A DNA stretch of 38,661 nt from Spongiibacteraceae bacterium (GCA_030618505.1 JAUXDF010000002.1:1-38661); one strand, 5' to 3'; positions 12,322-27,197 are shown, counted from the first letter of the stretch. Numbers and translations: made by a program. Notes: generated by a model from the letters alone, not told the origin.

Positions 12322-13323
12322 ATGTTACGCTTTACTCTATTGTTTATCTTAATTGCATATAGCCTTAGCGCGCAGAGTCTTAATGTATTCAGAGTAGCGG
12401 CAGACGAATGGCCGCCCTTCACCAGCGAAAAAAGCGACCAACGCATCGCCGTTGATCTGGTTCAAACGGCTCTAATACGCACCGGCTGGATACCAAAAAT
12501 TACCATTACTGACTGGGGAAAAATCGCCCCTGCAATAAAGGCTGGAGAGTTTGATGGCATTATTGCCGAATGGTACACAAAAGAGCGAGAAGAATACCTG
12601 CTTTTCTCCCAACCCTATCTGGAAAACCGGATAATCGCCCTCGGCCTTAAAAACAAAGCTAGCAAAGTGAGCAAAATCACCCAACTAAAAGGCAAACGTG
12701 TTGCCCTTGTAAAAGGCTACGCTTACGGTGATAAACTCTTTGCCAATGCGCCCTTTGAAGCAATCTACGGCGCAAGCGTACAGGAAAATTTACAGCTTCT
12801 ACTAACAGATAAAGTAGACTACCTGCTAGCGGATGAACTGGTTCTGAAATCACTTTATACGCAACTATCCAAAAGTGAGCGACAACAACTACAAAGCCAT
12901 TCAGCGCCCTTAACCATTAAAAAACTCTTTTTTGTCGTTAGCAAACAACATCCAAAAGCCGACATTATTATCGATAAATTTAACCGAGCTATTCGTGAGA
13001 TGGTCAATGATGGTAGCTATAACGACATTCTGGGCTTTGGTGTCATTTTCAGAACTGACGAAGAAGGCATTGCTGATGTCATTACCTCAAAGAGCAAACT
13101 CGATCTATCGTTACCGGAACAAGCACAGGATGGCTATCAGGTATTCAGTGAAGATAATGCGTTTGCCAGCAAGGGGTCAATGAAATACCGAGTGGATGGA
13201 CGCACCTACGCTAACTGGGATGATGCAAAGAAAGCGATAAACGAAGGCAGCCAGGATGTCAACAAACTGGACCCGGATCAGGATCAAGAGAATGAATACC
13301 AGCTTATAATTCCCATTCGCTAG
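12322..13323 (+). CDS. Periplasmic solute-binding protein (family 3, amino-acid-type fold) with a C-terminal extension
   Basis: Signal peptide ending AQS. PBP type-2 pattern (ADEWPPF, FDGIIAEW, SQPYLENR, KVDYLLADE). No permease or ATPase gene is adjacent. Confidence 0.7.
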   Translation: MLRFTLLFILIAYSLSAQSLNVFRVAADEWPPFTSEKSDQRIAVDLVQTALIRTGWIPKITITDWGKIAPAIKAGEFDGIIAEWYTKEREEYLLFSQPYLENRIIALGLKNKASKVSKITQLKGKRVALVKGYAYGDKLFANAPFEAIYGASVQENLQLLLTDKVDYLLADELVLKSLYTQLSKSERQQLQSHSAPLTIKKLFFVVSKQHPKADIIIDKFNRAIREMVNDGSYNDILGFGVIFRTDEEGIADVITSKSKLDLSLPEQAQDGYQVFSEDNAFASKGSMKYRVDGRTYANWDDAKKAINEGSQDVNKLDPDQDQENEYQLIIPIR

Positions 13324-13415
13324 GCAATAAACTGTTAACAAAAAGCGCTATTATATTGCGTTTGGCAAATACCTTAATATACTGTTAAAAACACCATAAA
13401 ACTGAGGAACTCAAT

Positions 13416-13937
13416 ATGAACAAAACTCTATTAAAATTCCTGGCCACCGCCAGCATCGCGCTAGTTGCTAATCTCGCAAATGCCGACATTTACCTGGGCG
13501 GCGGTTTATATCAATCCACTCTGGATGCCGATAATGATTTAGGCGACGATGATGATAAAGCGATGACCATATTTCTGGGCTGGGAGCCGCCTGTCATTCC
13601 CTTTTTGTCGGTTGAGATAGCCTACCACGATTTAGGTTCTTATAAGCTGAGTGAAGATATTGAGGCAGACCTCACTGCATATTCAGCCCAAGCTGTACTC
13701 GCATTCCCTATTTTGATGTTTGATATTTACGGAAAACTCGGTTATGCCAAAACTGATTCTGATTTCTCGGTAAATGGCGATAAAGACAATGACAGCAGCT
13801 CTGACCCCTATTTAGCTTTAGGCGTAGCCCTCACGCTACTCCCGGTTGTTGATTTCTATGCCGAATATCAACGCTTTGAATTCAATGATGACAATACCGT
13901 TGATATGTTTGGCGTGGGCGTAAAGGCGACATTTTAA
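13416..13937 (+). CDS. Small outer-membrane beta-barrel protein (OmpA-barrel/OmpW-like)
   Basis: Signal peptide ending ANA. Alternating hydrophobic beta-strand pattern. C-terminal GVGVKATF with terminal Phe. Confidence 0.75.
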   Translation: MNKTLLKFLATASIALVANLANADIYLGGGLYQSTLDADNDLGDDDDKAMTIFLGWEPPVIPFLSVEIAYHDLGSYKLSEDIEADLTAYSAQAVLAFPILMFDIYGKLGYAKTDSDFSVNGDKDNDSSSDPYLALGVALTLLPVVDFYAEYQRFEFNDDNTVDMFGVGVKATF

Positions 13938-14084: not shown

Positions 14085-16169
14085 TCAAAAAATATAATAG
14101 TAACCCAAGTTAAAAAATAAAATACGGTACTTTTCGTTCTGATCAAAGCGATTTTTTCCTCGTATAAACTGTCCACCAAACTCACCATCGAGGGTATGCC
14201 GTTTCATAAAACGGTATTCAACACGCAAGACCGGCGCAGTTTTGCTCTGGTCGCTGCCATCTTGATTGTCCCTTTTTTGAAAGCTCAATTTTGACTGTAA
14301 AGACCAGGCACTGGGCCACCGATAGCGATAATGCAGGTAAAGGGTATTAATATCTGAATAGGCCAGTCTTGAGTGATTGGAACTAATAGTTACACTATCG
14401 TAGTCACTAAACAGTCCCTGCCCAAAAATCTGCAGATAATAATAGTATTCGTTTCCTGTGCCCTCAAAGCCCTGCACACCGCCTGATTCTGGTGTATCGG
14501 AAAGATGGGATAAGGTGAATGAGCCGCTGATGCTGTAACGCTGGCTTAATGGATGACTCACATAAAGGTTGGCCGTCTTACTGACATAGGTGCGATCAAG
14601 CGCCAGATCCTCTATAGAGGATCCATCCTCAATAATTTGTTCAAGCGTATCCAGCTCATCACTTTGTTGACCAATCAATGCATTTTGTGTCGTTAAGAAA
14701 GGACTTTTGCGATAGTTTAATGACAGGTTTGTTGTGGTTCCGCTGGAGAAAATATAACTACTATTCAGTAGCAGTGCATTAAGCTCCTTATAAAAAACAT
14801 CATAGTCAAGCAAGCCAGAGAGGTGGACACGCTGCGTGTTATAGGTCACTTCGGTGCCAATCGCACGTCGATCAACGTAGCTATCAATACGCTGCTCTAT
14901 AGCAAAAATATTAACATCTGTAGCCCCATAGAATGGCCCCAGATCACTGCCTACACCGAAGAAATAACGATTTGAATTCACCGATGTGTCGGACGAGCTA
15001 TTTACCGGGTAGCCGGCAACAACATTAATCCGGCTTTTGTTTCCCGTTGGCGTGGAAAGTTGTACTCCATCAAAACGTCCCATAACGCCGTTATGATTAT
15101 CCCGTTGGCGACCTAGCTTGATATGGTGTTCATTTTCCCTATCTTCTGCTTCGATATAAAAATAGCTTAGTCGTCCGCTGTCGCCAGGGCCACCACCAAG
15201 AAAGTCAGCATCATAACCTCCGTTTACTCGACTGGTGACCTCATACTGGCCGCTGCGATAGCGCTGATGGTAATCAATTGAAGTACTTAGCATGGACAGA
15301 CTGGTTTTGCTTTCGCCATTATCATCGGTATTTTCTGCCATGCGATAATACTGAAAAAACCCCCCGTAGCTTTGCCAGGTTTCAGAGGTTTTTTTACGCT
15401 TGTTATTGGCTGAGCGTAATTCTGCTGTCGGCTGCTCCAGGGTAATAAGCGCTGCAAGGCGCTGTTTTACTCGAAAACTGCCATCACTTTCAGGGTATTG
15501 TTTCAGGTAGTCATCGTAAGCTTTTTTGGCGCGGGCTTTTTTACCCGATCTCTCCAGTGCTACCGCATAAAACTCGTAGGCTAGTTGCTTAACAGTTTCG
15601 TCCGTCGATTCTATCAAACGGATATAGATCGATTCAGCTTTGGCGTAGTCGCGCTGGGACATCGCATGTTGTGCTGCCAGAAACAGTGCTTTACTGCTGG
15701 CTTGTTCACCATCCGCTGATACTGCACTTATACTTTGATTTTCTTTGGAGACTCGAAAATCGATAATGAGTCGATGCCCATAACGACCGCTTGGGCCTAA
15801 TAAAAAAACATTCTCCGTGACTGGTTTTGAAAGATCAATAGTAAGCAGCGTAAGGCCTTTATTGACTTTGTCTTGCCTGCGAATGTTCTTTATAAGCTTA
15901 TTGTTTGCGATGATATCTTTCGTAGACAGTTGAAAGCTCGCCAGTGGAATTTCCAGTACCAGCTGAGTTGAGGTACTTTTTCCAAGGCGTTTATAACTAA
16001 TCGCGCCGCTGAGATCGAACACCATGCGGGTTTTGCTCTCACTACTACCGACACGAATATCGTTGATAACAACATCATTAACATTATCTCCCAGAACAGA
16101 CCCTGAGATACACAGCAGTATAAAGCCCCAGCGGCGTATGAGTTTCCCATTAAACTGCCACAGGTGCAT
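14085..16169 (-). CDS. Outer-membrane protein: signal peptide + AMIN domain + TPR region + large C-terminal beta-barrel
   Basis: AMIN-like segment INDIRVGSSESKTRMVFDLSG...RLIIDF. TPR-like helices (AQHAMSQRDYAKAESIYIRL...YDDYLKQYP). About 430 aa of alternating-strand sequence ending YYYIF. The start ATG overlaps the upstream stop (TAATG, 16167-16171). Confidence 0.7.
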   Translation of the reverse strand: MHLWQFNGKLIRRWGFILLCISGSVLGDNVNDVVINDIRVGSSESKTRMVFDLSGAISYKRLGKSTSTQLVLEIPLASFQLSTKDIIANNKLIKNIRRQDKVNKGLTLLTIDLSKPVTENVFLLGPSGRYGHRLIIDFRVSKENQSISAVSADGEQASSKALFLAAQHAMSQRDYAKAESIYIRLIESTDETVKQLAYEFYAVALERSGKKARAKKAYDDYLKQYPESDGSFRVKQRLAALITLEQPTAELRSANNKRKKTSETWQSYGGFFQYYRMAENTDDNGESKTSLSMLSTSIDYHQRYRSGQYEVTSRVNGGYDADFLGGGPGDSGRLSYFYIEAEDRENEHHIKLGRQRDNHNGVMGRFDGVQLSTPTGNKSRINVVAGYPVNSSSDTSVNSNRYFFGVGSDLGPFYGATDVNIFAIEQRIDSYVDRRAIGTEVTYNTQRVHLSGLLDYDVFYKELNALLLNSSYIFSSGTTTNLSLNYRKSPFLTTQNALIGQQSDELDTLEQIIEDGSSIEDLALDRTYVSKTANLYVSHPLSQRYSISGSFTLSHLSDTPESGGVQGFEGTGNEYYYYLQIFGQGLFSDYDSVTISSNHSRLAYSDINTLYLHYRYRWPSAWSLQSKLSFQKRDNQDGSDQSKTAPVLRVEYRFMKRHTLDGEFGGQFIRGKNRFDQNEKYRILFFNLGYYYIF

Positions 16170-17863
16170 TAGAACTCGCCATCCTGCACGCGGTGTTCGC
16201 TGCTCTCATGGCATGCACCTGAGCAATCCTTTAATTCAAACACTGTGTACTTAATATCACCAGATTTCTTGTGAGGCCCTGGGTCGTAATCCTTTTCATG
16301 GCAGGCTGCGCAATCAGGTTGATGCGCAGGAAAAGGCCAGGGAACAGTTTCTGCGTTGCTGGTATGGCAAATATTACAAGTGAGATTACTCCGGTGATCG
16401 CCGGGATAGTTAGCGCTAATGTGAGAAAAGCTGGTAAACGACCAATTGGTAGTATTATGGCAACGATCACATTGCTGGGTCGTCATAAAGTGGCTGGCAG
16501 ATTTTCCCGTGGCGATGATGCCGTCATGGCAGCTGGAACAGTTATTGGAGGCAGTACTATGATCAAAGCTTGCCGGTGTCCAGGCAAGATTGCTGTGGCA
16601 AAGATCGCACTCTGCGTTAGTAGCAATATGATCGCCCGGCTTGCCGGTGGCGACAGAACCATTATGACAACTTGAGCAAGCGCTGGTAATGCCGCTATGG
16701 TCGAACACCGCCGGTAGCCAGGCAAGGTTACTATGACAGAGATCGCACTCTCCACTGGTACTGATATGACCCGTGGGCTTTCCATCAGCCGTGCTACCGT
16801 TATGACAGCTGGAACAACTGCCAAGGACTTCGTCATGATCTACGCGAACGGCAGGTTCCCACTGTACGTTGTTGTGGCAAGCCTCACATACATTACTCGA
16901 TAGTATATGGCTAGTCCCCTTGGGCGTTGACGTAACACCATCGTGACAAGCAATGCAGCTGCTGGTGACGGCATTGTGATCAAAAATTGCTGGCGACCAA
17001 GCAAGGCTATTGTGGCAAAAAGCACAATCGGCATTAGTGGGCAGATGACTAGCATCCTTCCCCGTTGCCTCGATACCATTGTGACAGCTGGCGCATTGCC
17101 CCAACACCTCATTGTGATCGATACGAATGACCGGTTCCCACAGATTTGAACTATGGCATGCTTCGCAAGCGTTGCCAGTCAGTGCATGACTCGCGCTTTT
17201 ACCGGTAGCCGTTAATCCATCATGGCAAGCGATACAATTATTACTCACCGTACTGTGATCAAAGGTCGCCGGCAACCAGGCGATGGCGCTATGACAAAAC
17301 TGACAGTCTGCGTTAGTCGGTAGATGATTGTTGGTTTTTCCCGTGGCGATGACGTTATTGTGACAAGTGAAACATTGACCAGAAATTTCATTATGATCAA
17401 CACGTGGTATTGTTTGCCAGTTATTGTCGATATGACAGCTATCACACTGCTGGGAGCTTAAAATGTGCTGGATCGGTTTTCCCTCAGCACTAATATTGTT
17501 ATGGCAGTTTTGACAAGGCCCAATAGTAGCGCTATGTTCAACACGGACAACTATGTCCCAGCCATTCTCCGTGTGGCAGTCCAGACAATGGTCAGTGCTT
17601 GGAACATGCTGTAAGGGTTTAACAGATGCATCAATACGTCCACGATTGGCGTGGCACGCTTCACAGATTACCGGTGTTCCTTTAAATTGACCATTGATAT
17701 GGCATGACTGGCAATCAACCTGGCGATGTAATCCTTCCAGGGGAAAGCCGGTAAGAAAGTGGTCATACTCAACATTCTGGGCCAAGGCTTGTTGAAACAA
17801 ACACAACATCGCAATAATACTCAAAAAGCCGAAGCGCGAAATAGTGATAGGATCTATTTTCAT
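16169..17863 (-). CDS. Secreted multihaem c-type cytochrome, 21 CxxCH + 1 CxxxCH
   Basis: Signal peptide ending ALAQ with no lipobox. I counted 21 CxxCH motifs plus CSGACH at aa 547-552. About eight tandem di-haem units of 46-47 aa. Confidence 0.9.
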   Translation of the reverse strand: MKIDPITISRFGFLSIIAMLCLFQQALAQNVEYDHFLTGFPLEGLHRQVDCQSCHINGQFKGTPVICEACHANRGRIDASVKPLQHVPSTDHCLDCHTENGWDIVVRVEHSATIGPCQNCHNNISAEGKPIQHILSSQQCDSCHIDNNWQTIPRVDHNEISGQCFTCHNNVIATGKTNNHLPTNADCQFCHSAIAWLPATFDHSTVSNNCIACHDGLTATGKSASHALTGNACEACHSSNLWEPVIRIDHNEVLGQCASCHNGIEATGKDASHLPTNADCAFCHNSLAWSPAIFDHNAVTSSCIACHDGVTSTPKGTSHILSSNVCEACHNNVQWEPAVRVDHDEVLGSCSSCHNGSTADGKPTGHISTSGECDLCHSNLAWLPAVFDHSGITSACSSCHNGSVATGKPGDHIATNAECDLCHSNLAWTPASFDHSTASNNCSSCHDGIIATGKSASHFMTTQQCDRCHNTTNWSFTSFSHISANYPGDHRSNLTCNICHTSNAETVPWPFPAHQPDCAACHEKDYDPGPHKKSGDIKYTVFELKDCSGACHESSEHRVQDGEF

Positions 17864-19443
17864 TATTGCGTCCCTTCATCCAGATTAAAACTATCCACCT
17901 GATGACACTGACTGCAGCGTTTTCCAAAACTGCCTCGATGTATATCATCATCACGGTGACAATCAAAGCAGGACTGAGGTGTCTGTTTCGAGTTGTTATG
18001 GCATAGCTCGCATTGCAGGTTTTCATGTGCACCTTGTAATGCGAAGTGCGTCTGTCGACCATGATCAAACAACCACATCATCCAGTCATTGGGGTTATGG
18101 CATAGACCACAATCCTCACCCAAAGCACCTTTGTGAGCATCTTGTTGCTTGTGGCACTGCTGACAATCAGAGGGTGTTTTTTCGTAATGAGCGTTTAGAT
18201 GGCACTCCTGGCAACTCAGTTGGCGATGCATACCCACGAGCGGAAATTGGGTAATTTCATGACTGAATAAAGTCTTTTTCCAACTATCGGGAGAGTGGCA
18301 GTTGTCACACTCCTTTCCCAAGGATTGCTGATGCGGGTCAGACAATTGATGACAATCAACACATTGCTGTGAAAGTTTTTCATCTGTTTTTGTCGGACTA
18401 TGACAAGAATTACAGGCAAGATGCTTATGTTTTCCGGCCAAGGGGTATTCAGTATCGCTATTATGATCAAAGGCTGTTTTTGACCAGCTTTTGGATGAGT
18501 GGCATTGCTGACAATCCTCGCCATTGCGACCGTTGTGAATATCGCTACTTTTGTGGCAACTGAAACAATCACTGGCAAGCATATTCTCTTTGCTGACAGT
18601 TTTCTGATGGCAGGCCAGGCAAGATGTTTTCTGATGCGAGAAAAGCAATTTAAATTTAGTGTCAAGACCATGATCAAACAGACTTTTCCCCCAGTCTTTT
18701 TCAGAATGACAATTTTTACAATCACTGCCAAACCTTCCCTGATGGATATCATGTATACGATGACAGTCATTACATTGCTTGCCAATATCCTGGTACTGAC
18801 GATTGATGTGGCAGCGATTACAGGCTACATCCTGGTGTTTATGCGCCAATGGAAACTCGGTTTTATCATGGTCAAACTGCTGCTTTTTCCAGTTGTCCGT
18901 TGTATGGCAGTCTTCACACTGTTTTCCCAGTTTATTGTTATGTATGTCATTTTTTTCATGGCAATCAAAGCAGCTTCGTTGCTCTAATCTGTAGCTCTTC
19001 TTATTAGTCGAGGTATGACAAAGAACACAGGCTGTAACGCTATGTTTGCCATCCAGCGGGAAGTTTGTAAGGTGGTGATTAAAACTGTCGGTATCCAGAT
19101 TAACAATATCGTACCCTCTGCCTTTATGATCGGTATGGCAGGTTTTACATTCGGCATTTTTAATATTTTTGTTTAAACCGTGAAAACCGGCGCTACGATC
19201 AAGATCTTCAGCGATCTTATCGTGACAGTCCAAACAGAGAGAGCTTTGCTCTGCTTTGGAAAAGTCCTGATGGCATTTGTCGCAGCTCGCAGCCTCCTCC
19301 TGGTGAGATTGCGTTAAATCGCCAGGACTGAGCAATATCTGTTTTAGCGTTTGGGCCTGGGAAAAAGGTGTGCTTAATAACAAGACAAAACAAAGCAACG
19401 ATAGGAAAATAACAATAGCAGATCGATTTCTTATCAAATTCAT
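17863..19443 (-). CDS. Secreted multihaem c-type cytochrome, 21 CxxCH
   Basis: Signal peptide ending SQAQ with no lipobox. 21 CxxCH motifs counted. Five tandem tri-haem units of 65-69 aa plus a partial sixth (two CxxCH), of the c7/c3-like paired-CxxCH type. The stop overlaps the next start (TAATG, 17861-17865). Confidence 0.9.
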   Translation of the reverse strand: MNLIRNRSAIVIFLSLLCFVLLLSTPFSQAQTLKQILLSPGDLTQSHQEEAASCDKCHQDFSKAEQSSLCLDCHDKIAEDLDRSAGFHGLNKNIKNAECKTCHTDHKGRGYDIVNLDTDSFNHHLTNFPLDGKHSVTACVLCHTSTNKKSYRLEQRSCFDCHEKNDIHNNKLGKQCEDCHTTDNWKKQQFDHDKTEFPLAHKHQDVACNRCHINRQYQDIGKQCNDCHRIHDIHQGRFGSDCKNCHSEKDWGKSLFDHGLDTKFKLLFSHQKTSCLACHQKTVSKENMLASDCFSCHKSSDIHNGRNGEDCQQCHSSKSWSKTAFDHNSDTEYPLAGKHKHLACNSCHSPTKTDEKLSQQCVDCHQLSDPHQQSLGKECDNCHSPDSWKKTLFSHEITQFPLVGMHRQLSCQECHLNAHYEKTPSDCQQCHKQQDAHKGALGEDCGLCHNPNDWMMWLFDHGRQTHFALQGAHENLQCELCHNNSKQTPQSCFDCHRDDDIHRGSFGKRCSQCHQVDSFNLDEGTQ

Positions 19444-19444
19444 A

Positions 19445-20296
19445 TCAATACATATGCACCACTACAATATGAACTGTTGCAGTAATAATCATCATAAAGA
19501 AAAATGGCAGATGTACGATATGCCAAATGGAGAACAGCCGATTGTAGAGTGAGAGGCCAATCATCGAACGCAAGGTTTTTAGTTCTTGCTCAAAATGTTC
19601 TGTCATCTCCGTGTAAAAAAATTGCTGTCCCCCAGCTGTTTGCACAGATGCGCCATTTAAACGCCTGAGCTCACTCAATAAACGGTGTGACAGCACATTG
19701 ACCCTGAAAACGGAACGCCAACTGTGAATCAGAGAGCTATTTTTATCAGCCACCAGATCCTCAATTTTTTGCAGATGCTGCAATAAAGCATCATCAATCA
19801 TCGCGTTTGAACTGAGTTGCTGCTTGAACTGGGCGTGCTGGGCTTGAAGTTGATCATAATTCAGTTTTTTACCGTAAAGTCCATTATGGGTGTGTCGGTA
19901 AATATAACGGCCAATCAAACCACTGAACGCCACTAACAGCATGGAGAACAATGCAACATTAGAGTTCATGGAGCCGAGACCAAAATTGCAATGAAAGAGA
20001 ATTAATGTGGGGCCCAAAATACCAAATAGCATATGGGCCTTAAACCAGTATTTAATCGGGAAAACACCACGCATCCAACGCGCTTTTTTTCGTAGCGGGT
20101 AAAGCAGCAATAAGGCCATTAAACTCACGCCGATAATACCCAGGTAATAACCCAAACCTTGTTCCGCACTAAGCCAATATTCATCACGTTGCAGCCAGCC
20201 CCAGCTTAATGCAAGCGCCAAACTGACCGAAAAAAGTAATTGGTAAATGTTTTTAGTTAATATTTCGAACATCGTTATAACCGGTGCTTCTATCAC
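19445..20296 (-). CDS. Integral membrane protein with two H-x13-H helices (putative di-haem b-type electron carrier)
   Basis: Five predicted TM helices. H88/H102 lie in one helix and H262/H276 in the last. About 100 aa of soluble helical insert between TM4 and TM5. GTG start at 20296, alternative ATG at 20272. The stop is 1 nt from the cytochrome start. Confidence 0.6.
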   Translation of the reverse strand: MIEAPVITMFEILTKNIYQLLFSVSLALALSWGWLQRDEYWLSAEQGLGYYLGIIGVSLMALLLLYPLRKKARWMRGVFPIKYWFKAHMLFGILGPTLILFHCNFGLGSMNSNVALFSMLLVAFSGLIGRYIYRHTHNGLYGKKLNYDQLQAQHAQFKQQLSSNAMIDDALLQHLQKIEDLVADKNSSLIHSWRSVFRVNVLSHRLLSELRRLNGASVQTAGGQQFFYTEMTEHFEQELKTLRSMIGLSLYNRLFSIWHIVHLPFFFMMIITATVHIVVVHMY

Positions 20297-20554
20297 ATGC
20301 GAAATATACGAATAAGATCTTTTAAAACCACCACTCGCAAGTGAATTGTATCAATTAAAGATTAAGATAAACTTAAGCATAGCCTGTTTTCCCTTCACAC
20401 TGTCGGGCAGATCTCACATTACGCAGAGAAGCTCTATGTTTTGGTGACCGGTGTTCTAAAATTTATACCCGGCAGTAGCCTTGTTTATCTCGCATGCTAA
20501 AGTGTTAATAACAATCGATTTCTTATAACGACCAGAAAACAGATAGGTAGATTG

Positions 20555-21868
20555 ATGGGCAGTAGCGCAGCAACAATGATTTATATCGTACCGATGATAT
20601 TGATTATTTCGATCTATCTGTTCCGGCAACACAAACATCACCAAAGCAGCATTAGCGTTAAACAGGCCGCCACCAGTAGTGGCTTGACCGAACCCGCATC
20701 ACTTCACCCGCTGATAGACCCCGAGCGCTGCATAGGCTGCGGCTCCTGTGTGGATGCCTGTCCCGAAAAACAAGTACTCGGTCTCATTAACAACAAAGCT
20801 GAACTGATCGCCCCGGCCAACTGCATTGGCCACGGTGCCTGTAAGCTCGCTTGCCCAGAGGCTGCTATTTCCTTGGTATTTGGCACCGAACAACGTGGAG
20901 TTGATATTCCTGAACTATCAAAAGATTTTCAAACCAGCGTAAAAGGCGTTTACATCGCTGGTGAATTAGGCGGTATGGGGTTAATTCGCAATGCCATTGA
21001 GCAAGGTCGCCAGGCAATTGAGTCGATTAAGAAACAGGAATTAAAGGCGACTGCAGGTAATAATGAGGTGCTTGATGTATTAATCGTTGGTGCTGGACCC
21101 GCCGGCATCTCGGCATCGCTTTGTGCGCTGGAAAACAAGATGACATTTTGCACCATCGAACAGGACAGTCTAGGCGGGACAGTGTCACATTATCCACGTG
21201 GAAAGCTGGTGATGACGGCCCCGGCCAAACTGCCGCTAGTGGGAAAAATGAATTTCTCAGAAGTGAGCAAAGAGAAGTTAATCGAATTTTGGCAGGGTGT
21301 AGAGCAGCAATATCCCCTTGCCATCCACTACCAGGAGCGCCTGGAAGATATTAGCAAGCAAGGCGAGCTGCTGGATATTCAGACTAGCAAAGGCTGCTAT
21401 CGTGCTCGTAGTGTTTTATTGGCCATTGGCCGAAGGGGAACACCGAGAAAGTTAGGGGTGCCGGGTGAGGGCCTGGAGAAAGTCGTCTATCGTATGATTG
21501 ATCCTGAGCAGTATAGAGAGAAGCATGTCTTAGTGGTCGGTGGCGGTGATAGTGCTCTGGAGGCCGCTCATGAGATAGCCAAACAAACTGGAGGGCATGT
21601 TGTTCTATCCTATCGTGGCGCTAGCTTTAGTCGTGCAAAGGAGAAAAATCGACAGAAGATAGAGGCCGCCGAGCGCTCAGGAACATTAACAGTCCATTTA
21701 GAATCTAACGTGAAGAATATAGATGAAAAGCAGGTGGTTATTGAAACCTCTAGCGGTTTTGAAACCATAGAAAACGATGCGATTATTGTCTGCGCTGGCG
21801 GTGTACTACCAACGCCGATGCTAAAGAAAATCGGTATCGGCATTGTGACCAAATATGGTGAGGTTTAA
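20555..21868 (+). CDS. Membrane-anchored 2x[4Fe-4S] ferredoxin-domain / FAD- and NAD(P)-binding oxidoreductase (thioredoxin-reductase-like fold, no redox CxxC)
   Basis: N-terminal TM helix IYIVPMILIISIYLF. CIGCGSCVDACP and CIGHGACKLACP. GxGxxG motif VLIVGAGPAGISA. Second dinucleotide site VLVVGGGDSALEAA. Confidence 0.8.
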   Translation: MGSSAATMIYIVPMILIISIYLFRQHKHHQSSISVKQAATSSGLTEPASLHPLIDPERCIGCGSCVDACPEKQVLGLINNKAELIAPANCIGHGACKLACPEAAISLVFGTEQRGVDIPELSKDFQTSVKGVYIAGELGGMGLIRNAIEQGRQAIESIKKQELKATAGNNEVLDVLIVGAGPAGISASLCALENKMTFCTIEQDSLGGTVSHYPRGKLVMTAPAKLPLVGKMNFSEVSKEKLIEFWQGVEQQYPLAIHYQERLEDISKQGELLDIQTSKGCYRARSVLLAIGRRGTPRKLGVPGEGLEKVVYRMIDPEQYREKHVLVVGGGDSALEAAHEIAKQTGGHVVLSYRGASFSRAKEKNRQKIEAAERSGTLTVHLESNVKNIDEKQVVIETSSGFETIENDAIIVCAGGVLPTPMLKKIGIGIVTKYGEV

Positions 21869-21870
21869 TT

Positions 21871-23880
21871 TTGGTGGATAAGCGCACTACATATATCCAA
21901 TGTTTTACCGCACTGGGAGGCTACAGGAAGGTATGCGTTCATTTTCTCTGGGCTCTATTGATACTGATCGGTCTAACAACTCCCTGTACAGGAGCAGAAA
22001 ATAAAACTGTACTGGCGCCACACATTAAGCGCTTAATACTTACTGAACAGTATCAACAACTTGAACCTGAACTACGCAAGTTAGCTATGCAAGGTAACGC
22101 TGAAGGACAGTATCAACTGGGGATACTTTATCTCCACGGTAATGCGGTAAAGGAAAACCATCAAATGGCGCTTTACTGGTTTGAAAAGTCGGCCAGACAG
22201 CATCATACAAAAGCACAATTTAACAGTGCCATGCTGTTAGTAGGCGAAAAAAGAAACCGGCAAAAGGCCATTATTTATTTACAATCGGCTGCCGCTAGCG
22301 ACCACAAAATGGCTGAAATGCACCTAAAAGATTTGACTCAGGGCTCTGAAAAAAATAAAGAGATGGACCAGTCAACACTCAATAGCCGCTTGATTTATGC
22401 AGCAAAAAAAGGCGATAGCGAGGAGATAAGTTCATGGATAAATGCCGGTGCCGATCCCAACAGCACCGACAGCGACGGCAGGACAGCACTGATACTCGCT
22501 GTGGAAAATGGCAATATTGCCGCCCCAACGGTATTGCTCAATGCTGGTGCGAATATGCTAGTGACAGATCCCACGGGAAATACAGCCCTTCATTTCGCCG
22601 TTATTACGCATAATCGTAAAATAGTAAAACCTCTTGCTGCAAGCGGCAATTTGGAACAAAAAAACCAACAGGGACTGACTGCTCTTCTATTAGCCATTGA
22701 GTTAAACGATGCCAATTTGGTGGCTGAATTGCTATTGCATGGTTCCAATGCCAATGCGGTAAACAGCAATAGCGCAAGTGCCCTGGATAATGCACAAAGG
22801 AAATCGAATAAAACGATTATTGATTTACTTAAACAATACGGAGCCAGATCAGCCACAACGGAAAAAAAGGAGTTGACCCGTCGCTTGGCCGCCATTCAAG
22901 CACAGCTAAAACAGCCACAATTTAAAGACTGGGATGAGTTAATGCTAGCAGCCAGCATGGGTGATTATGAAATGGTTGACTGGTTACTAATAGAGGATTC
23001 ACCGGATAAAAACAGTTATAAGACTGGCAAAGCAATCGCTCAGTCAGTTATCTCAAACGACAAAAAGACCACTGAGCTATTGTTAAATCATTTGCAAGAA
23101 AAAAGTATCGCTAATGCCGATATTCGAGAGATTATTGATCTTGCCATTGAGCATTATGACCTGGGGCGGTTTTCTCATTTGTATCAACATCCTTTATTGC
23201 ATGAGGCAAAAAACCTGTCCGCCGGAAAACTGTTAAGACAGTCGATTACTGAGGGGAAGCCAGACACTGCAATCTATCTTATTCAGCAAGGCGGCAAACT
23301 TAACTATGTATCAGAAAATGGTGAATCACATTTAATAACTGCATCAAAAAGAGGCCAGACCGCTGTGATCGAAAAGCTTTTAGCCACCGGTGTCGCGGTT
23401 GATGATAAAGATCAGCTAGGAAGAACTGCGCTATGGCACAGCGCTTATGCGGGGCATCACCAAACGGCTAAATTGCTAATCTCTAACGGTGCTGACCTTG
23501 ATCTAAGCGATCAGCAAGGACGGACAGTTTTGATGATGGCAGTGCTCAACAATGACGACAAATTAGTAGACCTACTGCTGCGCTCAGGCGCTAGCCTGGA
23601 TAAAGTTAGCAAGAGTGGAAATACGCCGTTACATATCGCAGCTAAAAAAACCTCTCCCCAAATCATCACCCTCCTGTTAGAAAAGAAGGCTAATTTATCA
23701 CTTCGTAACAGCAACAGCCTGACGCCATTAATGATCGCTGCACAAGCAGGTAATGAGCCGGCAGTGAAGCTATTATTGATTGCAGGTGCTGACCCAGACA
23801 GAAAAAATCAGAATGGTCACTCAGCCATCGACATAGCAAACAAGCAGAAAGTAGTTACTCTATTGAAAGAATACCAGTAG
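21871..23880 (+). CDS. Secreted Sel1-like repeat + ankyrin-repeat protein
   Basis: TTG/GTG start 7-10 nt after GGTGAGG. Hydrophobic signal-like segment FLWALLILIGLTTPCTGA. Sel1 repeats (GNAEGQYQLGILYLHG, ALYWFEKSA). At least 8 ankyrin repeats (e.g. GRTALILAVENGN, GNTALHFAV, GNTPLHIAAKK). Confidence 0.8.
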   Translation: MVDKRTTYIQCFTALGGYRKVCVHFLWALLILIGLTTPCTGAENKTVLAPHIKRLILTEQYQQLEPELRKLAMQGNAEGQYQLGILYLHGNAVKENHQMALYWFEKSARQHHTKAQFNSAMLLVGEKRNRQKAIIYLQSAAASDHKMAEMHLKDLTQGSEKNKEMDQSTLNSRLIYAAKKGDSEEISSWINAGADPNSTDSDGRTALILAVENGNIAAPTVLLNAGANMLVTDPTGNTALHFAVITHNRKIVKPLAASGNLEQKNQQGLTALLLAIELNDANLVAELLLHGSNANAVNSNSASALDNAQRKSNKTIIDLLKQYGARSATTEKKELTRRLAAIQAQLKQPQFKDWDELMLAASMGDYEMVDWLLIEDSPDKNSYKTGKAIAQSVISNDKKTTELLLNHLQEKSIANADIREIIDLAIEHYDLGRFSHLYQHPLLHEAKNLSAGKLLRQSITEGKPDTAIYLIQQGGKLNYVSENGESHLITASKRGQTAVIEKLLATGVAVDDKDQLGRTALWHSAYAGHHQTAKLLISNGADLDLSDQQGRTVLMMAVLNNDDKLVDLLLRSGASLDKVSKSGNTPLHIAAKKTSPQIITLLLEKKANLSLRNSNSLTPLMIAAQAGNEPAVKLLLIAGADPDRKNQNGHSAIDIANKQKVVTLLKEYQ

Positions 23881-24096: not shown

Positions 24097-25959
24097 CTAT
24101 ACCTTAAATGAGCCCATTAAACCTTCCAGCTCAGTAGACAAGTGTTCCAGATCGCCAGCAGCAGACATCAAACTCGTCATCGTCGTTGAGCTACTGTCCG
24201 CCAGGCTATAGATATTGGATATGCTCTTATTAATATCAGCTGTCACGAGCGATTGCTCTTCAGATGCACTAGCGACCTGAAAATTAAGACTCGTGATAGC
24301 TTTCACACCCTCGTTAATACTACTTAATGCTTCGGTTCCCTTTGACGCTTCATCCACACCTTCTTGTGCTTTTGCACTGCAATTGTCCATTGACTTAACC
24401 GCAGAGCTTGCACGCCCCTGAAGCGTTTCAATCATAGACTGAATCTCCTCTGTCGACTCCTGGGTGCGCGCAGCCAGCGCTCTCACCTCATCAGCAACAA
24501 CAGCGAAGCCTCGACCTTGCTCTCCTGCACGAGCCGCCTCAATCGCAGCGTTAAGTGCAAGCAAATTAGTTTGTTCGGCGATACCACGAATAACATCCAG
24601 TATTGTCCCAATATTTTCGCTATCCTCTTTAAGCTCAGTAATAACAACGGTTGTCTGCTGCATAGAAGACATTAGTGCATTAATAGTGCTGCGTGTATTG
24701 GTAACAATTTGCATGCCACTTTCCGTATCGTTTTCAGCAGACTGGACAGTGTCTGTGGCTTGAACAGCAGACTGGGCTATTTCCCTGGATGATGTTTCCA
24801 TTTGAGCAATGGCATCGGCAACCTGAGTCAACTCACCTTTCTGTGACTCTACACCTTGTTGCGTTTGTCCACTCAACTGCAACAAGTTATGGGATGCTCT
24901 AGAAACCTCAGCCGAGGATTCACCAATACGGGTAAGCAGACCATGAATAGACTCTTGCATTACCCGCATGGCTTCCTGCAGCTGACCAATCTCATCGCCA
25001 TTGCCTTTAGGAATCGCTTGAGTCAAATCCCCGCTGGCAATATTCGATAGTTGATTAGCGCAATCCTGCAAGGGTAAAAGTTTTTTCCTTAGATAAAACG
25101 GTATAACAAGAGCAAAAATGATGACGACCGAACCCGTAACAAGATAGGACGTCAATTTCAATTGCTGTTGAGTAGCGTAGCTTTCAGATATATCGCTTGC
25201 GGTAATCAGATGTGAAATCACCGACCCATCGCTTGATTTAATGGCAGTATTGCTTACGCTGTAAGTCATATCTTTTAGCATCATGTAACTTAACGCAGGA
25301 GACTGTATTGACAAGCCCGCTACCGACAATGACTCGAGCAAGGCCTGATCAGTGGCATACTCAATGCCATTTTTGCTCAAAACAGCTATATCCGCTCCGT
25401 CACTTAACTTAAAATCAGTCAAAACACTATCAAGCTCCAAGGCATAGATCCCAACTCCAACGGGCTTTCCTCGGCTATGCAAAGGAAATGCAATCGCTGC
25501 TACGAGTTTGCCGTCATAATCACGCGCAATTCCACGTTTTATTTTTCCATCGACGAGCGCGCTTTTTGCCAGTTTAAATGACGTTAAGCCTGAGTAGGAG
25601 GAAGGTGCTGAATAAAGCACTGCTCCCCCCAGGTTAACCAGTTGAATTCGATCTAAAATATTTGAACTACTCAATAGATTAAATGTGGTTTTAGCAGCAT
25701 CAGCAAGGGTGACTTTATCCCCAGATTGTAGCGCTTTACGTGTCACTCGGTCTCTTACCAGAGTTGACGTATTGGCTTCCATGCGCTCAAATTGAGCCGA
25801 TAGGGTTTTTTCCCATAATACAGACTTCCCCCTACTGACAGCATCTGCAAACCTACCCTCAACTTGTTGCATCAACAAATACTGCGAACCCAGCAAAATA
25901 CTAACCAGCAACAACGTACTGCCGAGAATAGCGATCGCGATCCGAGTTCGTAGCATCAT
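24097..25959 (-). CDS. Methyl-accepting chemotaxis protein with a ~250-aa periplasmic (Cache-like) sensor domain
   Basis: Two TM segments, a HAMP region, and the highly conserved signalling hairpin [35 protein letters not shown]. Confidence 0.9.
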
Positions 25960-25981
25960 ATCTTTCTCAATTAATTATCAT

Positions 25982-26398
25982 TTATTCAACAGGGTAAGAG
26001 GCTGCCTTCCAGGCAGGAAAACCATCGCGATAATAATAGACCTTTGAGAACCCCCAACTAACAGCCTGCGCAGTAGCCTTGGAACTTCTCATACAACTCT
26101 CGCCATTACAGTACAATACAAACCTCTCATCTTTTTTGACTTCAGCACTAAGAGAGCTTTCGCTAAAGATCTTCTTTAATTCAATGTGAATGGCATCTGG
26201 CACGCGTCCTGCCTCCCAATCCTTATCCTTTCTCACATCCACAAAAGCAACACCCTCATCGAAAAGCGCTTTCGCCTGAGAGGTATCAACCGTCGTGGCT
26301 CCCTCTATACTCTTTGGTGACTTTTCATCTCCCGCCCATGCGGCGCAAGCGAACAACAGACCTGCAAATGCCAAAAAAATTCGTGATTCTATTTTCAT
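25982..26398 (-). CDS. Periplasmic single-domain rhodanese (PspE-like sulfurtransferase)
   Basis: Signal peptide ending AWAG. Active-site loop LYCNGESCMRS. 138 aa. Confidence 0.8.
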   Translation of the reverse strand: MKIESRIFLAFAGLLFACAAWAGDEKSPKSIEGATTVDTSQAKALFDEGVAFVDVRKDKDWEAGRVPDAIHIELKKIFSESSLSAEVKKDERFVLYCNGESCMRSSKATAQAVSWGFSKVYYYRDGFPAWKAASYPVE

Positions 26399-26513
26399 CT
26401 TTTTTACCTTTAAATTCTGATAATAATGATTTTCTTTTACAGTATAGATAACATCCAGGTTTTATGTACTCAATTTGAAGCCTACTATTAACACTGAGTC
26501 GCCGGATTGAAGC

Positions 26514-27197
26514 TTATGGTAATTTAAGCGTAAAACAACCACCGCCGGAGGGAAGATTGCTAATCTCAATCATGCCTTTTAATTCATCTTTCGTGTGCAT
26601 CGCTGCTATCTGGGCAGCAAAATACAAGCCCAAACTGGTGCTACCACTGTCAAAATCAATGCCTTTTACATAAGCAGAAGGTTCACGGATCATCATCTCC
26701 GGGTACCCTCTCCCATTATCCATCACCTTTATTTGTAGATATTCATCATCGATAGCGGCACTGATAACAATGCTGTCTTTGGTATATCTGGCAGCGTTTA
26801 CCAATATATTATTTAACACCCCGGCAATCAGGTCATCATCAAAATAGCCGGCAAGATTTTCCTCACACTGCACAGTGGTCGTGATATCACGAATATCAAA
26901 TAAGATACTATTTTGAGCTACTTGCTCCTCAAGGAAATCTCTAACAAATATCTCTTCAATATGAATAGGAAGCTCATCGCGCTGTAGCCTATATATACCG
27001 AGCAAGTAAATAAGATCATTTCGAATCCGGGATGCTTCACCCTGCAAAGTACAATATTTCTTTTTATGATTGTCTTCTTCGGCGGGGTATTCACTCATTA
27101 AATCCTCAAGGGAGGAGAGCAACATCCCCAGAGAGTTCTTCATATCATGAACAGAAGACGCTAACAGCAGGGAGAAATCATTATTGTTATCATTCAT
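26514..27197 (-). CDS. Soluble histidine kinase lacking a recognisable input domain
   Basis: H-box SVHDMKNSL, N-box NNILVNAARY, G1 MDNGRGYP, G2 GSTSLGL. No TM segment. ATGA overlap with the upstream response-regulator gene. Confidence 0.85.
   Translation of the reverse strand: MNDNNNDFSLLLASSVHDMKNSLGMLLSSLEDLMSEYPAEEDNHKKKYCTLQGEASRIRNDLIYLLGIYRLQRDELPIHIEEIFVRDFLEEQVAQNSILFDIRDITTTVQCEENLAGYFDDDLIAGVLNNILVNAARYTKDSIVISAAIDDEYLQIKVMDNGRGYPEMMIREPSAYVKGIDFDSGSTSLGLYFAAQIAAMHTKDELKGMIEISNLPSGGGCFTLKLP

Follow-up and report, generated by a model that had tools for sequence, protein, structure and literature searches.

The four closely packed minus-strand genes described here lie in a 38,661-nt stretch of Spongiibacteraceae DNA (GCA_030618505.1 JAUXDF010000002.1:1-38661; hereafter the window) and are assigned on sequence grounds to PCC3, because their gene order, the diagnostic motifs of the inner-membrane protein (IMP), the haem counts and the homology to Sideroxydans clusters point to this type. 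Together with two divergent genes, which gene neighbourhoods across genomes place in the same conserved module and which encode a flavoprotein and a Sel1/ankyrin protein, this PCC3-type cluster probably (roughly 60% by our estimate) forms a six-protein module that moves electrons across the whole Gram-negative envelope. PCC3 was first described, and already proposed as a trans-envelope electron conduit, by He, Barco, Emerson and Roden (2017); it has been surveyed again since then, and was termed functionally uncharacterised in the literature as late as 2026. The initial annotation had taken the four genes for a novel type of conduit. The conduit reading is consistent with all findings, none of which is of the kind listed there as contrary (a small or plugged barrel, orthologues in exopolysaccharide loci, lack of synteny, a periplasm-only function of close orthologues), but the claim of novelty falls, since gene order, IMP motifs and proposed role had all been published in 2017. 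The four-gene boundary was also drawn too tightly, leaving outside it the divergent genes for the flavoprotein and the ankyrin protein, which are part of the conserved module.

Gene Organization and Relation to Published PCC3 Clusters

All four open reading frames are contiguous and intact at the coordinates of Table 1. Re-reading of the sequence upheld their tight coupling, the junctions being TGA-t-ATG, TAATG and TAATG (overlapping or 1-nt spacing). The IMP frame gives 283 aa from a GTG, whereas in the database the gene is called at 275 aa, which puts the start at ATG 20272, probably the true one.

Table 1. Features of the PCC3-type cluster and its divergent neighbours in the window.
Feature	Position	Strand	Description
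Outer-membrane protein	14085-16169	-	694 aa; signal peptide, AMIN, TPR-like helices, 22-strand beta-barrel (profiles and AF2)
Second multihaem cytochrome (MHC-C)	16169-17863	-	564 aa; 21 CxxCH + 1 CxxxCH
Putative periplasmic 21-haem c-type cytochrome (MHC-B)	17863-19443	-	526 aa; Sec signal peptide, 21 CxxCH
PCC3 IMP, putative di-haem b carrier	19445-20296	-	5 TM, two WX3HX13H, SGLIG
Divergent intergenic region, presumed divergent promoters	20297-20551	.	255 bp; head-to-head layout
Membrane-anchored Fe-S flavoprotein	20552-21868	+	N-terminal TM, 2-cluster ferredoxin domain, FAD + NAD(P)H domain
Sel1 + ankyrin-repeat protein	21871-23880	+	669 aa; N-terminal hydrophobic signal; Ank_2 2e-71, Sel1 3e-13

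The four components (IMP, two multihaem cytochromes and barrel) stand in the conserved PCC3 arrangement. Their order equals that of Slit_1446-1449 in S. lithotrophicus ES-1 (IMP, cyt-c_p, cyt-c_e, porin), and the layout is also that of a Sideroxydans MAG locus, where identity to the present proteins is 34% for the IMP (3e-35), 38% over 536 aa for the first cytochrome and 53% for the flavoprotein. The barrel protein matches homologues from Sideroxydans sp. P0088 (5e-50) and Gallionellaceae P0091 (3e-49). Reported carriers of PCC3 are S. lithotrophicus ES-1, where Slit_0867-0870 form another cluster, Leptothrix and many Alpha-, Beta- and Gammaproteobacteria. Across the ~160 loci retrieved, the gene order is kept, running IMP, ~21-haem cytochrome, variable cytochrome and barrel in nearly all loci with enough DNA, with synteny of the four genes in dozens of genomes. 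Whereas PCC3 as published comprises four genes and barrels of up to 42 strands, here 22 strands are modelled and two further genes form part of the conserved unit.

The Inner-Membrane Protein

The IMP has the features published for its PCC3 counterparts (He et al., 2017), namely about 300 aa, five TM segments, SGXXG on TM4 and WX3HX13H on TM3 and TM5. Its five hydrophobic segments carry W84-x3-H88-x13-H102 on TM3, SGLIG at 125 on TM4 and W258-x3-H262-x13-H276 on TM5, which confirms the five-TM protein with two H-x13-H helices recognised earlier and extends the motif to W-x3-H-x13-H. All four motif His, both Trp and SG..G are invariant among 66 IMP homologues, and the AF2 model (pLDDT 88.9) places helices at residues 6-35, 49-62, 81-102, 110-136 and 228-281. 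The protein is regarded as a putative di-haem b-binding protein.

Profile searches gave no Pfam or NCBIfam match above threshold for the IMP, its homologues giving sub-threshold matches only (DUF4405, Ni_hydr_CYTB and Ferric_reduct). A ferric reductase domain (PF01794) was rejected for it, Ferric_reduct being matched below threshold by 2 of the 66 IMPs (best E 0.021); Foldseek with the IMP model returned no solved relative and no match at E <1. No fusion of the IMP to an Fe-S or flavin domain occurs among the best 150 representatives. In the IMP, as in NOX/FRE and MsrQ, two TM helices each carry a His pair with a spacing of 13 residues, and the IMP may share a working principle with ferric reductase domain proteins, proposed here as common also to MsrQ-Fre, in which electrons pass from NAD(P)H through flavin and two b haems to an acceptor across the membrane. 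The flavin part of NOX/FRE is of the FNR type (FAD_binding_8/NAD_binding_6), whereas here it would be a separate TrxR/YpdA-type protein with an Fe-S ferredoxin domain, and the acceptor, which is O2 or Fe(III) in NOX/FRE, would be the 21-haem cytochrome.

The same 5-TM, SGxxG and double WX3HX13H pattern is found in the IMP of PCC4; in its subgroup II the gene directly upstream of the IMP encodes an Fe-S protein (He et al., 2017). The IMP families of PCC4 and PCC3 are nevertheless without significant overall similarity, and PCC4 differs from the present cluster in having three small periplasmic cytochromes (4, 5 and 10 haems) and no extracellular cytochrome.

The Two Multihaem Cytochromes

The 21 and 21 (+1 CxxxCH) haem motifs claimed for the two cytochromes were recovered by motif counting, with one CxxCH per 25.0 residues in the first and one per 26.9 residues in the second, where the CxxxCH is at position 547. 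Composition-preserving shuffles of both proteins averaged 0.3 motifs and never exceeded 3, so 21 lies far beyond chance, and none of the other ORFs of the window has two or more CxxCH. Read directly, neither sequence contains a canonical lipobox.

Corresponding to the haem-dense periplasmic cytochrome of PCC3 (published median 21), the first cytochrome consists of seven tri-haem c7-like modules of ~67 aa each, with a repeated haem spacing of 16-18/18/32-33, and holds enough His for bis-His ligation of all haems. It matches Cytochrome_C7 of Pfam at 6e-25 and the nanowire_3heme model weakly (E 0.04). Tandem tri-haem modules of the c7 type are also found in the Geobacter poly-c7 'nanowire' cytochromes such as the dodecahaem GSU1996, and a linear haem chain is therefore expected; GSU1996 has four modules, whereas the present protein has seven and is encoded in an envelope-spanning operon.

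The second cytochrome has the attributes of the other PCC3 cytochrome, i.e., low complexity, richness in T/S/A/G (32% here) and a haem in each short repeat (23-24 aa here), with haem number varying between genomes. It is the counterpart of the predicted 'extracellular' PCC3 cytochrome and likely the component associated with the barrel. Its first ten haems (residues 46-267) align weakly along nearly the full length of the DmsE/MtrA decahaem profile (TIGR03508), but at 83.2 bits against a cut-off of 192.2; the first cytochrome gave no match, and membership of this family was rejected for both.

Haem counts across loci set the two positions apart. The first holds exactly 21 haems in 66 of 92 loci (the mode), the common alternatives of 18, 24 and 27 being steps of one tri-haem module, and the second holds from 5 to 55, with a median of 28.5. 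The near-constant number in the first fits a length constraint such as the width of the periplasm, and the free number in the second fits an unconstrained extracellular part. As a signature, "two ~21-haem cytochromes" therefore describes this genome and, for the first cytochrome, the family in general, but not the second cytochrome, which with 22 haems is here below the family median; the equal numbers are a coincidence of this genome.

The Outer-Membrane Barrel Protein

The description of the last gene product as an outer-membrane protein bearing a signal peptide, AMIN/TPR region and C-terminal barrel ending in Phe has proved sound. It has a signal-peptide-like N-terminus, an AMIN domain at residues 37-138 that passes the Pfam cut-off (5e-06), significant TPR-type matches at 164-229 that do not reach curated cut-offs, and a barrel ending in ...YYYIF. 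Homologues carry AMIN, LysM or SPOR, three different peptidoglycan-binding domains, at the same N-terminal position; the barrel is homologous to those of PCC3 relatives with LysM or SPOR, while the domain here is AMIN. In the AF2 model (pLDDT 87.8) the barrel has 22 strands and is thus not small, and its loops are short save for one 38-residue insert. A helical insert at residues 494-525, within the loop that follows strand 13, is among the conserved family motifs. TonB-dependent transporters with 22 strands need a plug of about 150 residues, and by comparison with them the modelled lumen would stand open if no partner occupied it. Foldseek with the barrel model gave generic matches only (TM-scores <=0.49), with no MtrB-specific fold among the best; with no MtrB_PioB Pfam match and 22 strands, the barrel was not accepted as an MtrB/PioB porin of 26-28 strands.

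A TPR region joined to a barrel superficially resembles BcsC/PgaA, and AlgE is among the generic Foldseek matches, so that the protein could be read as an exporter of polysaccharide or another polymer standing beside unrelated cytochrome genes. The TPR-barrel exopolysaccharide exporters (BcsC, PgaA, PelB, AlgK/E) have 16-18 strands, however, against 22 here; no BcsC/PgaA match was obtained, the AlgE match is generic (TM <=0.40), and no glycosyltransferase or polymer-synthesis genes are nearby. Barrel homologues adjoin multihaem cytochromes instead of lying in exopolysaccharide loci, being consistently preceded by genes for an IMP and two such cytochromes. Synteny effectively refutes the exporter, which retains next to no probability.

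Somewhat more weight, though still little, is given to a system limited to the periplasm, in which the cytochromes would store or distribute electrons, as a capacitor, as donors to periplasmic reductases or in oxidative-stress defence, with the AMIN/TPR barrel merely an anchor that no polypeptide crosses. A capacitor role for many haems has been suggested in the literature, neither cytochrome is a lipoprotein, the cluster has no dedicated secretion gene, and none of the barrel's fold matches is specific to MtrB. The most conserved barrel segment, the helical insert, could occlude the lumen, yet 38 residues are few beside the plugs of other 22-strand barrels, and 22 strands far exceed the needs of an anchor. 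If both cytochromes were confined to the periplasm, a fixed haem number in one and a range from 5 to 55 in the other would be hard to explain. In addition, the barrel gene always closes the cytochrome operon across loci, as in Mtr-type systems, and close orthologues have been given no role confined to the periplasm.

Comparison With Known Envelope Conduits

MtrCAB, MtoAB and PioAB likewise have a gene for a periplasmic multihaem cytochrome adjoining one for an outer-membrane barrel, and the porin-cytochrome logic is shared. They differ in their 26 strands, against 22 here, and in their CymA/NapC-type tetrahaem c partner, whose place here is taken by a putative b-type 5-TM protein; the lipoprotein MtrC of MtrCAB has no counterpart, and the haem numbers here are two to five times larger. 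The Geobacter Pcc (OmbB-OmaB-OmcB) and Ext clusters also encode a porin together with periplasmic and outer multihaem cytochromes. No significant homology to them was found (49.5 bits with the GSU2203-family decahaem profile, against a 325-bit cut-off), and, unlike here, the outer cytochromes of Geobacter are lipoproteins and the clusters lack a dedicated inner-membrane or flavoprotein gene.

The Divergent Flavoprotein and Sel1/Ankyrin Genes

Of 93 loci, 83 keep the head-to-head arrangement of IMP and flavoprotein genes; promoter-like matches in the intergenic region did not exceed chance. The flavoprotein begins with a TM helix followed by basic residues, and its bulk is therefore predicted to be cytoplasmic. 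Its Fe-S motifs are CxxCxxCxxxCP and CxxHxxCxxxCP, and its FAD/NAD(P)H domain is of the TrxR/YpdA/FNR type, with invariant GAGPAG and GGGDSA. Disulfide reductases of the two-dinucleotide-domain type need a redox-active Cys pair; the flavin domain here has no conserved CxxC. Among PDB structures, YpdA/Bdr and TrxR-type FNRs match best (3e-26 to 1e-16); the present protein, probably also of the two-dinucleotide-domain type, has in addition a fused 2-cluster ferredoxin domain and a TM anchor; at 151 bits against a cut-off of 340 for the YpdA model, it is not an equivalog. With 53-63% identity between loci, the flavoprotein is the best-conserved protein of the module.

The Sel1/ankyrin gene begins 2 nt past the flavoprotein stop codon and lies downstream of the flavoprotein gene in 33 of the 43 loci with enough DNA. 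Its product is predicted to be periplasmic, and homologues have Sec-type signal peptides with AxA-like sites.

The linkage of PCC3 to the flavoprotein is reciprocal, being present in 41 of 47 assessable loci seeded with the barrel and in 50 of 58 seeded with the flavoprotein (about 13% of assessable loci lack it). It occurs in several phyla and in three gene arrangements, including four loci with all six genes in one co-directional string, and is found in cultured Paraglaciecola, a Nitrospinaceae MAG and Ca. Tenderia. No mention of this linkage was found in the PCC3 descriptions consulted, to which the divergent NAD(P)H-type flavoprotein and ankyrin genes are here added as parts of the module.

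Proposed Route and Direction of Electron Flow

From the gene linkage we infer that the flavoprotein is a physical partner of the IMP. Anchored by its N-terminus at the cytoplasmic face, it would pass electrons from NAD(P)H through FAD to its two Fe-S clusters. The IMP would then carry them over the cytoplasmic membrane by two b-type haems held between TM3 and TM5, one near each membrane face, with H88/H262 and H102/H276 as the predicted ligands. The seven tri-haem modules of the 21-haem cytochrome, lying in line, would act as a periplasmic wire of fixed length, and the second cytochrome, its length varying by genome, would sit in the barrel and reach out of it. The barrel would be tied to peptidoglycan by its AMIN domain, its TPR surface facing the periplasm, and the Sel1/ankyrin protein would be a periplasmic accessory (scaffold or chaperone). 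Overall, electrons would leave cytoplasmic NAD(P)H for an acceptor at the surface or outside the cell, without passing through the quinone pool.

The reciprocal linkage to an NAD(P)H-type flavoprotein suggests that net flow is outward, which is therefore the direction favoured here. Electron entry to NAD(P)+ is uphill, against the membrane potential, which likewise counts for the outward direction. So does the behaviour of S. lithotrophicus ES-1, whose two PCC3 clusters show down-regulation on Fe(II) and no induction on magnetite, and were judged by the authors of that work to be apparently uninvolved under those conditions. On the other hand, exporting electrons at the expense of NAD(P)H would dissipate energy instead of conserving it.

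Others favour inward flow because PCC3 is enriched in iron oxidisers. According to the published model, electrons enter at the surface cytochrome by oxidation of Fe(II), Mn(II), minerals or a cathode outside the cell, and run from the barrel through the 21-haem wire and the di-haem IMP to quinone; on this view the flavoprotein and ankyrin genes would be co-located for some other reason. PCC3 was indeed discovered in iron oxidisers and is common there (59% of Sideroxydans, also Leptothrix), although the module also occurs widely in lineages that are not known to oxidise iron, among them Colwellia, Alteromonadaceae, Oceanicoccus, Paraglaciecola, Steroidobacteraceae and Phenylobacterium. Some IMPs weakly match Ni_hydr_CYTB, a quinone-reactive cytochrome b family; no quinone site has been identified. 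One IMP gene is up in iron-oxidising cells of Sideroxydans CL21, and the module is carried by Ca. Tenderia, a lineage of cathode oxidisers. The inward model leaves unexplained a linkage to the NAD(P)H/FAD/Fe-S protein that is reciprocal and recurs in several arrangements, and it is considered rather unlikely.

A further proposal, held tentatively and at clearly less than even odds, is that PCC3 does not supply the quinone pool as a conduit for iron oxidation but is a six-protein, quinone-independent NAD(P)H:extracellular-acceptor oxidoreductase, a prokaryotic envelope-spanning counterpart of NOX/FRE. Here a dedicated, membrane-anchored dehydrogenase with FAD and two Fe-S clusters, the terminal one perhaps that in which an invariant His replaces the second Cys, would feed a new di-haem b family without a solved or Pfam-defined relative. 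That family would in turn serve a 21-haem 'ruler' wire and a variable surface cytochrome in a peptidoglycan-anchored 22-strand barrel. If this is true, aerobic and facultative bacteria would have in PCC3 a major unrecognised means of exporting reducing power, major because the module is very widespread (3,512 representative IMP clusters and at least 8,000 flavoprotein clusters, in several phyla), and the exported electrons may serve, for example, to reduce Fe(III)/Mn(IV) or to form superoxide outside the cell.

Identity of the gene cluster

The four minus-strand genes (listed in the table) are intact, and the junctions reported in the initial annotation (TGA-t-ATG, TAATG and TAATG) were read from the sequence exactly as claimed. 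A 275-aa gene call in the databases suggests that the inner-membrane protein (IMP) truly starts at ATG 20272 rather than at GTG 20296. The haem counts were likewise reproduced, with 21 CxxCH motifs in the 526-aa first cytochrome and 21 plus one CxxxCH in the 564-aa second cytochrome, and composition-preserving shuffles of the cytochromes gave a mean of 0.3 haem motifs and a maximum of 3. Tandem cytochrome c7/c3 units were found in both proteins by Pfam search. The 283-aa membrane protein does have five hydrophobic segments and both H-x13-H motifs, and in the presumed AMIN/TPR outer-membrane protein the AMIN match exceeds the Pfam cut-off, the TPR-type matches stay below the curated ones, and the C-terminus reads YYYIF. 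Promoter and terminator scans gave matches no better than the shuffle expectation, and RNA scans of the window found no Rfam families and no tRNAs.

Positions of features in the window and in the modelled barrel protein
Feature	Position	Strand	Remarks
IMP gene	19445-20296	-	283 aa from GTG 20296, intact
First cytochrome gene	17863-19443	-	526 aa, intact
Second cytochrome gene	16169-17863	-	564 aa, intact
Barrel gene	14085-16169	-	694 aa, intact
Iron-sulfur flavoprotein gene	20552-21868	+	divergent from IMP gene, 255 bp away
Sel1 and ankyrin-repeat protein gene	21871-23880	+	starts 2 nt past the flavoprotein stop codon
AMIN beta-sandwich of barrel protein	residues 33-140		AlphaFold2 model
Helical TPR region of barrel protein	residues 156-254		AlphaFold2 model
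22 beta-strands of barrel protein	residues 264-693		AlphaFold2 model
SBP_bac_3 and OmpA-like genes	12322-13937	+	solute-binding protein, 333 aa; small 8-strand-type barrel, 173 aa
Sensory cluster	24097-28843	-	methyl-accepting chemotaxis protein (dCache/HAMP), rhodanese-domain protein, overlapping gene pair
DUF1538 gene pair	32117-33648	+	244 and 266 aa, adjacent and overlapping
ORF	2580-3734	+	384 aa, no Pfam match
ORF	29050-31902	+	950 aa, weak PD40/beta-propeller matches only

The porin-cytochrome gene cluster type PCC3 was described as four components, namely a porin, two multihaem cytochromes and an IMP (He et al., 2017; PMC5566968). According to that study, the "extracellular" cytochrome has a median of 34 haems and the "periplasmic" one a median of 21, while the IMP, of ~300 aa, has five TM helices with SGXXG on TM4 and WX3HX13H on TM3 and TM5 and was proposed to hold two b haems. 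All of these defining features were found in the window cluster by motif and sequence check, the IMP bearing W84-x3-H88-x13-H102, SGLIG125 and W258-x3-H262-x13-H276. The gene order is also that of Slit_1446-1449 in Sideroxydans lithotrophicus ES-1, i.e., IMP, periplasmic cytochrome, extracellular cytochrome and porin. The barrel has ~97 homologues in a large protein database, Sideroxydans and Gallionellaceae proteins among them, and the Sideroxydans locus shares the layout of the window (IMP of 298 aa, 24-haem cytochrome, 11-haem cytochrome, barrel of 716 aa), in agreement with published descriptions of the Sideroxydans PCC3 copies. We put the probability that the window cluster belongs to PCC3 at about 0.9.

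Membership in the Mtr, Geobacter Pcc or NOX/FRD families was considered as well and ruled out by profile scores. The initial annotation held the combination of these parts to be unmatched among known systems, which is incorrect because the cluster matches the PCC3 description of 2017. Its conduit idea stands and coincides with the published hypothesis, whereas neither the novelty, nor the signature of two 21-haem cytochromes, nor the four-gene extent of the unit holds. The finding is real, but it is one more case of a known, computationally described kind of cluster, labelled in the literature to mid-2026 as predicted and functionally uncharacterised. On balance, we lean towards PCC3 being a true trans-envelope conduit.

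Synteny and haem counts in related loci

A locus scan built on a 7-sequence barrel alignment, with one genome per species, gave 80 loci with a barrel homologue of 27-45% identity. Most are gammaproteobacterial MAGs (Steroidobacteraceae, Colwellia, Alteromonadaceae, Methylophagaceae, Chromatiaceae, Thiohalomonadaceae and Woeseiaceae), and Rhodospirillaceae and Phenylobacterium are also represented. The nearest named MAGs by barrel are Oceanicoccus and UBA3067; no reference-genome barrel was more than 45% identical, and a 94% relative was found solely in an ENA metagenome. The survey bore out the proposed synteny, since the order IMP, multihaem cytochrome, multihaem cytochrome, barrel was seen wherever the upstream DNA suffices.

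Among the fetched loci, exactly 21 CxxCH motifs occur in 66 of 92 first cytochromes, 18, 24 and 27 being the other frequent values. As the 526-aa protein is built of seven tri-haem modules of ~67 aa, the step of three in the family counts corresponds to one module. In the second cytochrome, the number of CxxCH motifs lies anywhere between 5 and 55 (median 28.5 over all fetched loci), so the equal counts taken for a signature are a coincidence of this genome. By inference, the fixed 21 haems would reflect a limit on length, for which periplasm width is the simplest candidate, and the free variation of the second cytochrome would point to no such limit, i.e., to a part lying outside the cell. 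Earlier suggestions in PCC3 papers agree with both readings (He et al., 2017, PMC5566968, and a later paper). Compared with PDB sequences, the first cytochrome had no match and the second had a weak match to ActA of ACIII and no other. Along the MtrA/DmsE profile, the first ten haems of the second cytochrome align weakly.

Inner-membrane protein

Among 66 IMP homologues, H88, H102, H262, H276, W84, W258, S125, G126 and G129 are invariant, and the cytoplasmic-face motif R130-Y-x-Y-x-x-I-H137-x-G-L-Y-G is nearly so. Charge distribution predicts that the N-terminus and the helical insertion 133-250 are cytoplasmic. On this topology, H88 and H262 would lie towards the cytoplasmic side of the membrane and H102 and H276 towards the periplasmic side, the geometry expected of two stacked b haems. 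No Pfam or NCBIfam model matched the IMP in profile searches, a profile search against PDB sequences returned no relative and only coiled-coil noise on the cytoplasmic loop, and the fold search gave nothing with E <1. At a relaxed threshold, sub-threshold matches included DUF4405 (18/66), Ni_hydr_CYTB (5/66) and Ferric_reduct (2/66), which we take to be cytochrome-b-type families; unrelated membrane families recur too, e.g., DUF202 in 16 members. The IMP is therefore likely to operate in the manner of FRD or cytochrome b proteins, of whose families it is at most a putative member.

The IMP family comprises 3,512 representative clusters at E <=1e-3, 799 of them at E <=1e-30. Among the top 150 representatives, no fusion to an Fe-S or flavin domain was found. 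About a dozen of these (database proteins P0363, P0396, P0411 and others) are long homologues whose N-termini are extended by 150-400 residues, consisting of TPR repeats, a SPOR domain or no recognisable domain; these may be fusions with an upstream CycH-like gene or mis-called starts. In many related PCC3 loci, a gene for a dedicated CcmI/CycH-type cytochrome c maturation chaperone (TPR_CcmH_CycH and Ig_CycH) lies directly upstream of the IMP gene and is co-oriented with it (loci L036:2792-4156 and L019:2683-3636, and L164:4170-5039 of Paraglaciecola). It is absent from the window, where only the 255-bp intergenic region is found at that place.

Flavoprotein and ankyrin-repeat protein

The flavoprotein starts with a TM helix and a stretch of basic residues and continues with a ferredoxin domain for two clusters (C60xxCxxCxxxCP and C91xxH94xxC97xxxC101P) and a TrxR/YpdA/FNR-type FAD and NAD(P)H domain in which GAGPAG and GGGDSA are invariant and no CxxC is conserved. 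His94, within the motif CxxHxxCxxxCP at residues 91-102, is invariant in ten diverse homologues, and the sequence suggests that the second cluster is either 3Fe-4S or a His-ligated 4Fe-4S cluster, the latter kind often being located at inter-protein electron exit points. No fusions were found among the top 120 flavoprotein homologues. Homologues of the ankyrin protein bear Sec signal peptides.

At 53-63% identity, no protein of the region is better conserved than the flavoprotein, whose gene was found in 41 of the 47 assessable barrel-seeded loci with an IMP. Conversely, a PCC3 IMP is located beside the flavoprotein in 50 of 58 flavoprotein-seeded metagenome loci with at least 1.5 kb upstream, rising to 14 of 15 among those with two long flanks, and the ankyrin gene follows the flavoprotein gene in 33 of 43 flavoprotein-seeded loci. 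On this reciprocal linkage, both genes belong to the PCC3 module, and the unit as initially delimited, which left them out, is two genes too short. Approximately one locus in eight has no flavoprotein linkage. Of the 93 loci with both flavoprotein and IMP, 83 have them head-to-head, six have them convergent beyond the barrel, and four have a single co-directional string (flavoprotein, ankyrin, IMP, 21-haem cytochrome, second cytochrome, barrel). The six genes also occur together in Paraglaciecola sp. MB-3u-78, a Nitrospinaceae MAG, a Ca. Tenderia MAG and Sideroxydans.

Paraglaciecola sp. MB-3u-78 is a cultured isolate with the complete module (GCA_002835935.1, PJCF01000004.1, ~132.9-155.0 kb). 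One operon encodes the flavoprotein (439 aa) and then an ankyrin-like protein (673 aa), and the divergent operon encodes a CycH-like protein (289 aa), the IMP (287 aa), a 21-haem (526 aa) and a 31-haem (816 aa) cytochrome and the barrel (717 aa), with an ice-binding protein gene just downstream.

The words FAD, ferredoxin, 4Fe-4S, pyridine nucleotide and ankyrin are absent from the text of He et al. (2017; PMC5566968), and searches of the open-access literature found no report that connects PCC3 with a flavoprotein, a ferredoxin or an ankyrin protein. Three results go further than the PCC3 papers considered: the reciprocal linkage to the flavoprotein and ankyrin genes, the barrel with 22 modelled strands and a wall anchor, and the module-of-three statistics of the 21-haem cytochrome.

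Barrel protein

The barrel was confidently modelled with AlphaFold2 on 85 homologues (pLDDT 87.8). PCC3 porins were predicted to have up to 42 strands (He et al., 2017; PMC5566968), whereas the window member models with 22, and the small barrel that the initial annotation had allowed for was not obtained. All connections but one are short: strand 13 is followed by a helical insert of 38 residues (494-525), which strand parity predicts on the extracellular side and which bears some of the most conserved residues of the family, within the motif SPxLTTxNALIGQ...DR. In 22-strand TonB-dependent transporters a plug of ~150 residues is needed, so a 38-residue insert could not close this barrel, which by analogy argues for a partner polypeptide filling the lumen of the model. 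Foldseek against the PDB returned generic barrels, best the FimD and PapC ushers and porins (TM <=0.49), and no BcsC, PgaA or MtrB-specific match. A role of the TPR-barrel as polysaccharide exporter was ruled out by synteny and strand number.

Across the family, the N-terminal domain is AMIN, LysM or SPOR. Since all three are peptidoglycan-binding modules, wall attachment seems to be the property under selection. In the Ca. Tenderia sp. MAG (L167:2624-4863), a shorter barrel gene (585 aa) follows a separate gene for a 161-aa secreted protein; the N-terminal periplasmic domain seems to have a gene of its own there.

Other genes in the window

Immediately past the 3' end of the barrel gene, and on the other strand, are the SBP_bac_3 and OmpA-like genes. 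They recur in the 94%-identical metagenome contig and are absent from more distant loci, and the neighbourhood is therefore probably local synteny only. The sensory cluster lies immediately past the ankyrin gene, and its overlapping pair encodes a 549-aa fusion of a response regulator with a long stretch of TPRs and a 227-aa protein whose sole domain is HATPase_c; no association with PCC3 was seen in other loci. The two DUF1538 genes encode membrane proteins of a paired family.

Direction of electron flow and implications

On the most economical reading, the flavoprotein would be the cytoplasmic redox partner of the IMP. Electrons would pass from NAD(P)H to FAD and the two Fe-S clusters, from these to the inner and then the outer haem b of the IMP, into the 21-haem wire of the first cytochrome, on to the second cytochrome, placed in the barrel, and finally to an acceptor on the surface of the cell or outside it. 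The second cytochrome gene adjoins the barrel gene. Among the top IMP and flavoprotein homologues, no fusion protein supports physical contact between the two, and the IMP may alternatively have a quinone site. The full NAD(P)H-driven outward model is put forward tentatively, as a possibility that we regard as somewhat improbable in its entirety.

Inward flow from Fe(II)-type donors to NAD(P)+ (-320 mV) would be uphill, would run against the inside-negative membrane potential and has no obvious coupling device; outward flow would be favoured on both energetic counts. Many heterotrophs of marine and soil lineages carry the module, which was also counted toward outward flow. PCC3 is usually entered as a "possible iron oxidase", but the sole transcript data speak against that: in S. 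lithotrophicus ES-1, both PCC3 clusters are down on Fe(II) versus thiosulfate and are not induced on magnetite. Outward export from NAD(P)H does not conserve energy, and the candidate benefits are redox balancing, metal reduction for uptake and reactive-oxygen chemistry.

PCC3 is among the most widespread predicted porin-cytochrome systems, and its function is made more directly testable by the flavoprotein/ankyrin linkage, the 22-strand barrel and the haem-module statistics. The near-invariant 21 haems against a freely varying second cytochrome offer a clean natural test of a single cytochrome spanning the periplasm, and the cultured Paraglaciecola with a complete module provides an entry point for genetics. 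If the partner is indeed an NAD(P)H-oxidising iron-sulfur flavoprotein, membranes with both inner-membrane proteins could be assayed concretely for their ability to reduce the 21-haem cytochrome with NAD(P)H. The default would then shift from electron uptake to export bypassing the quinone pool, and the interpretation of PCC3 genes in sediment, soil and ocean metagenomes would change.
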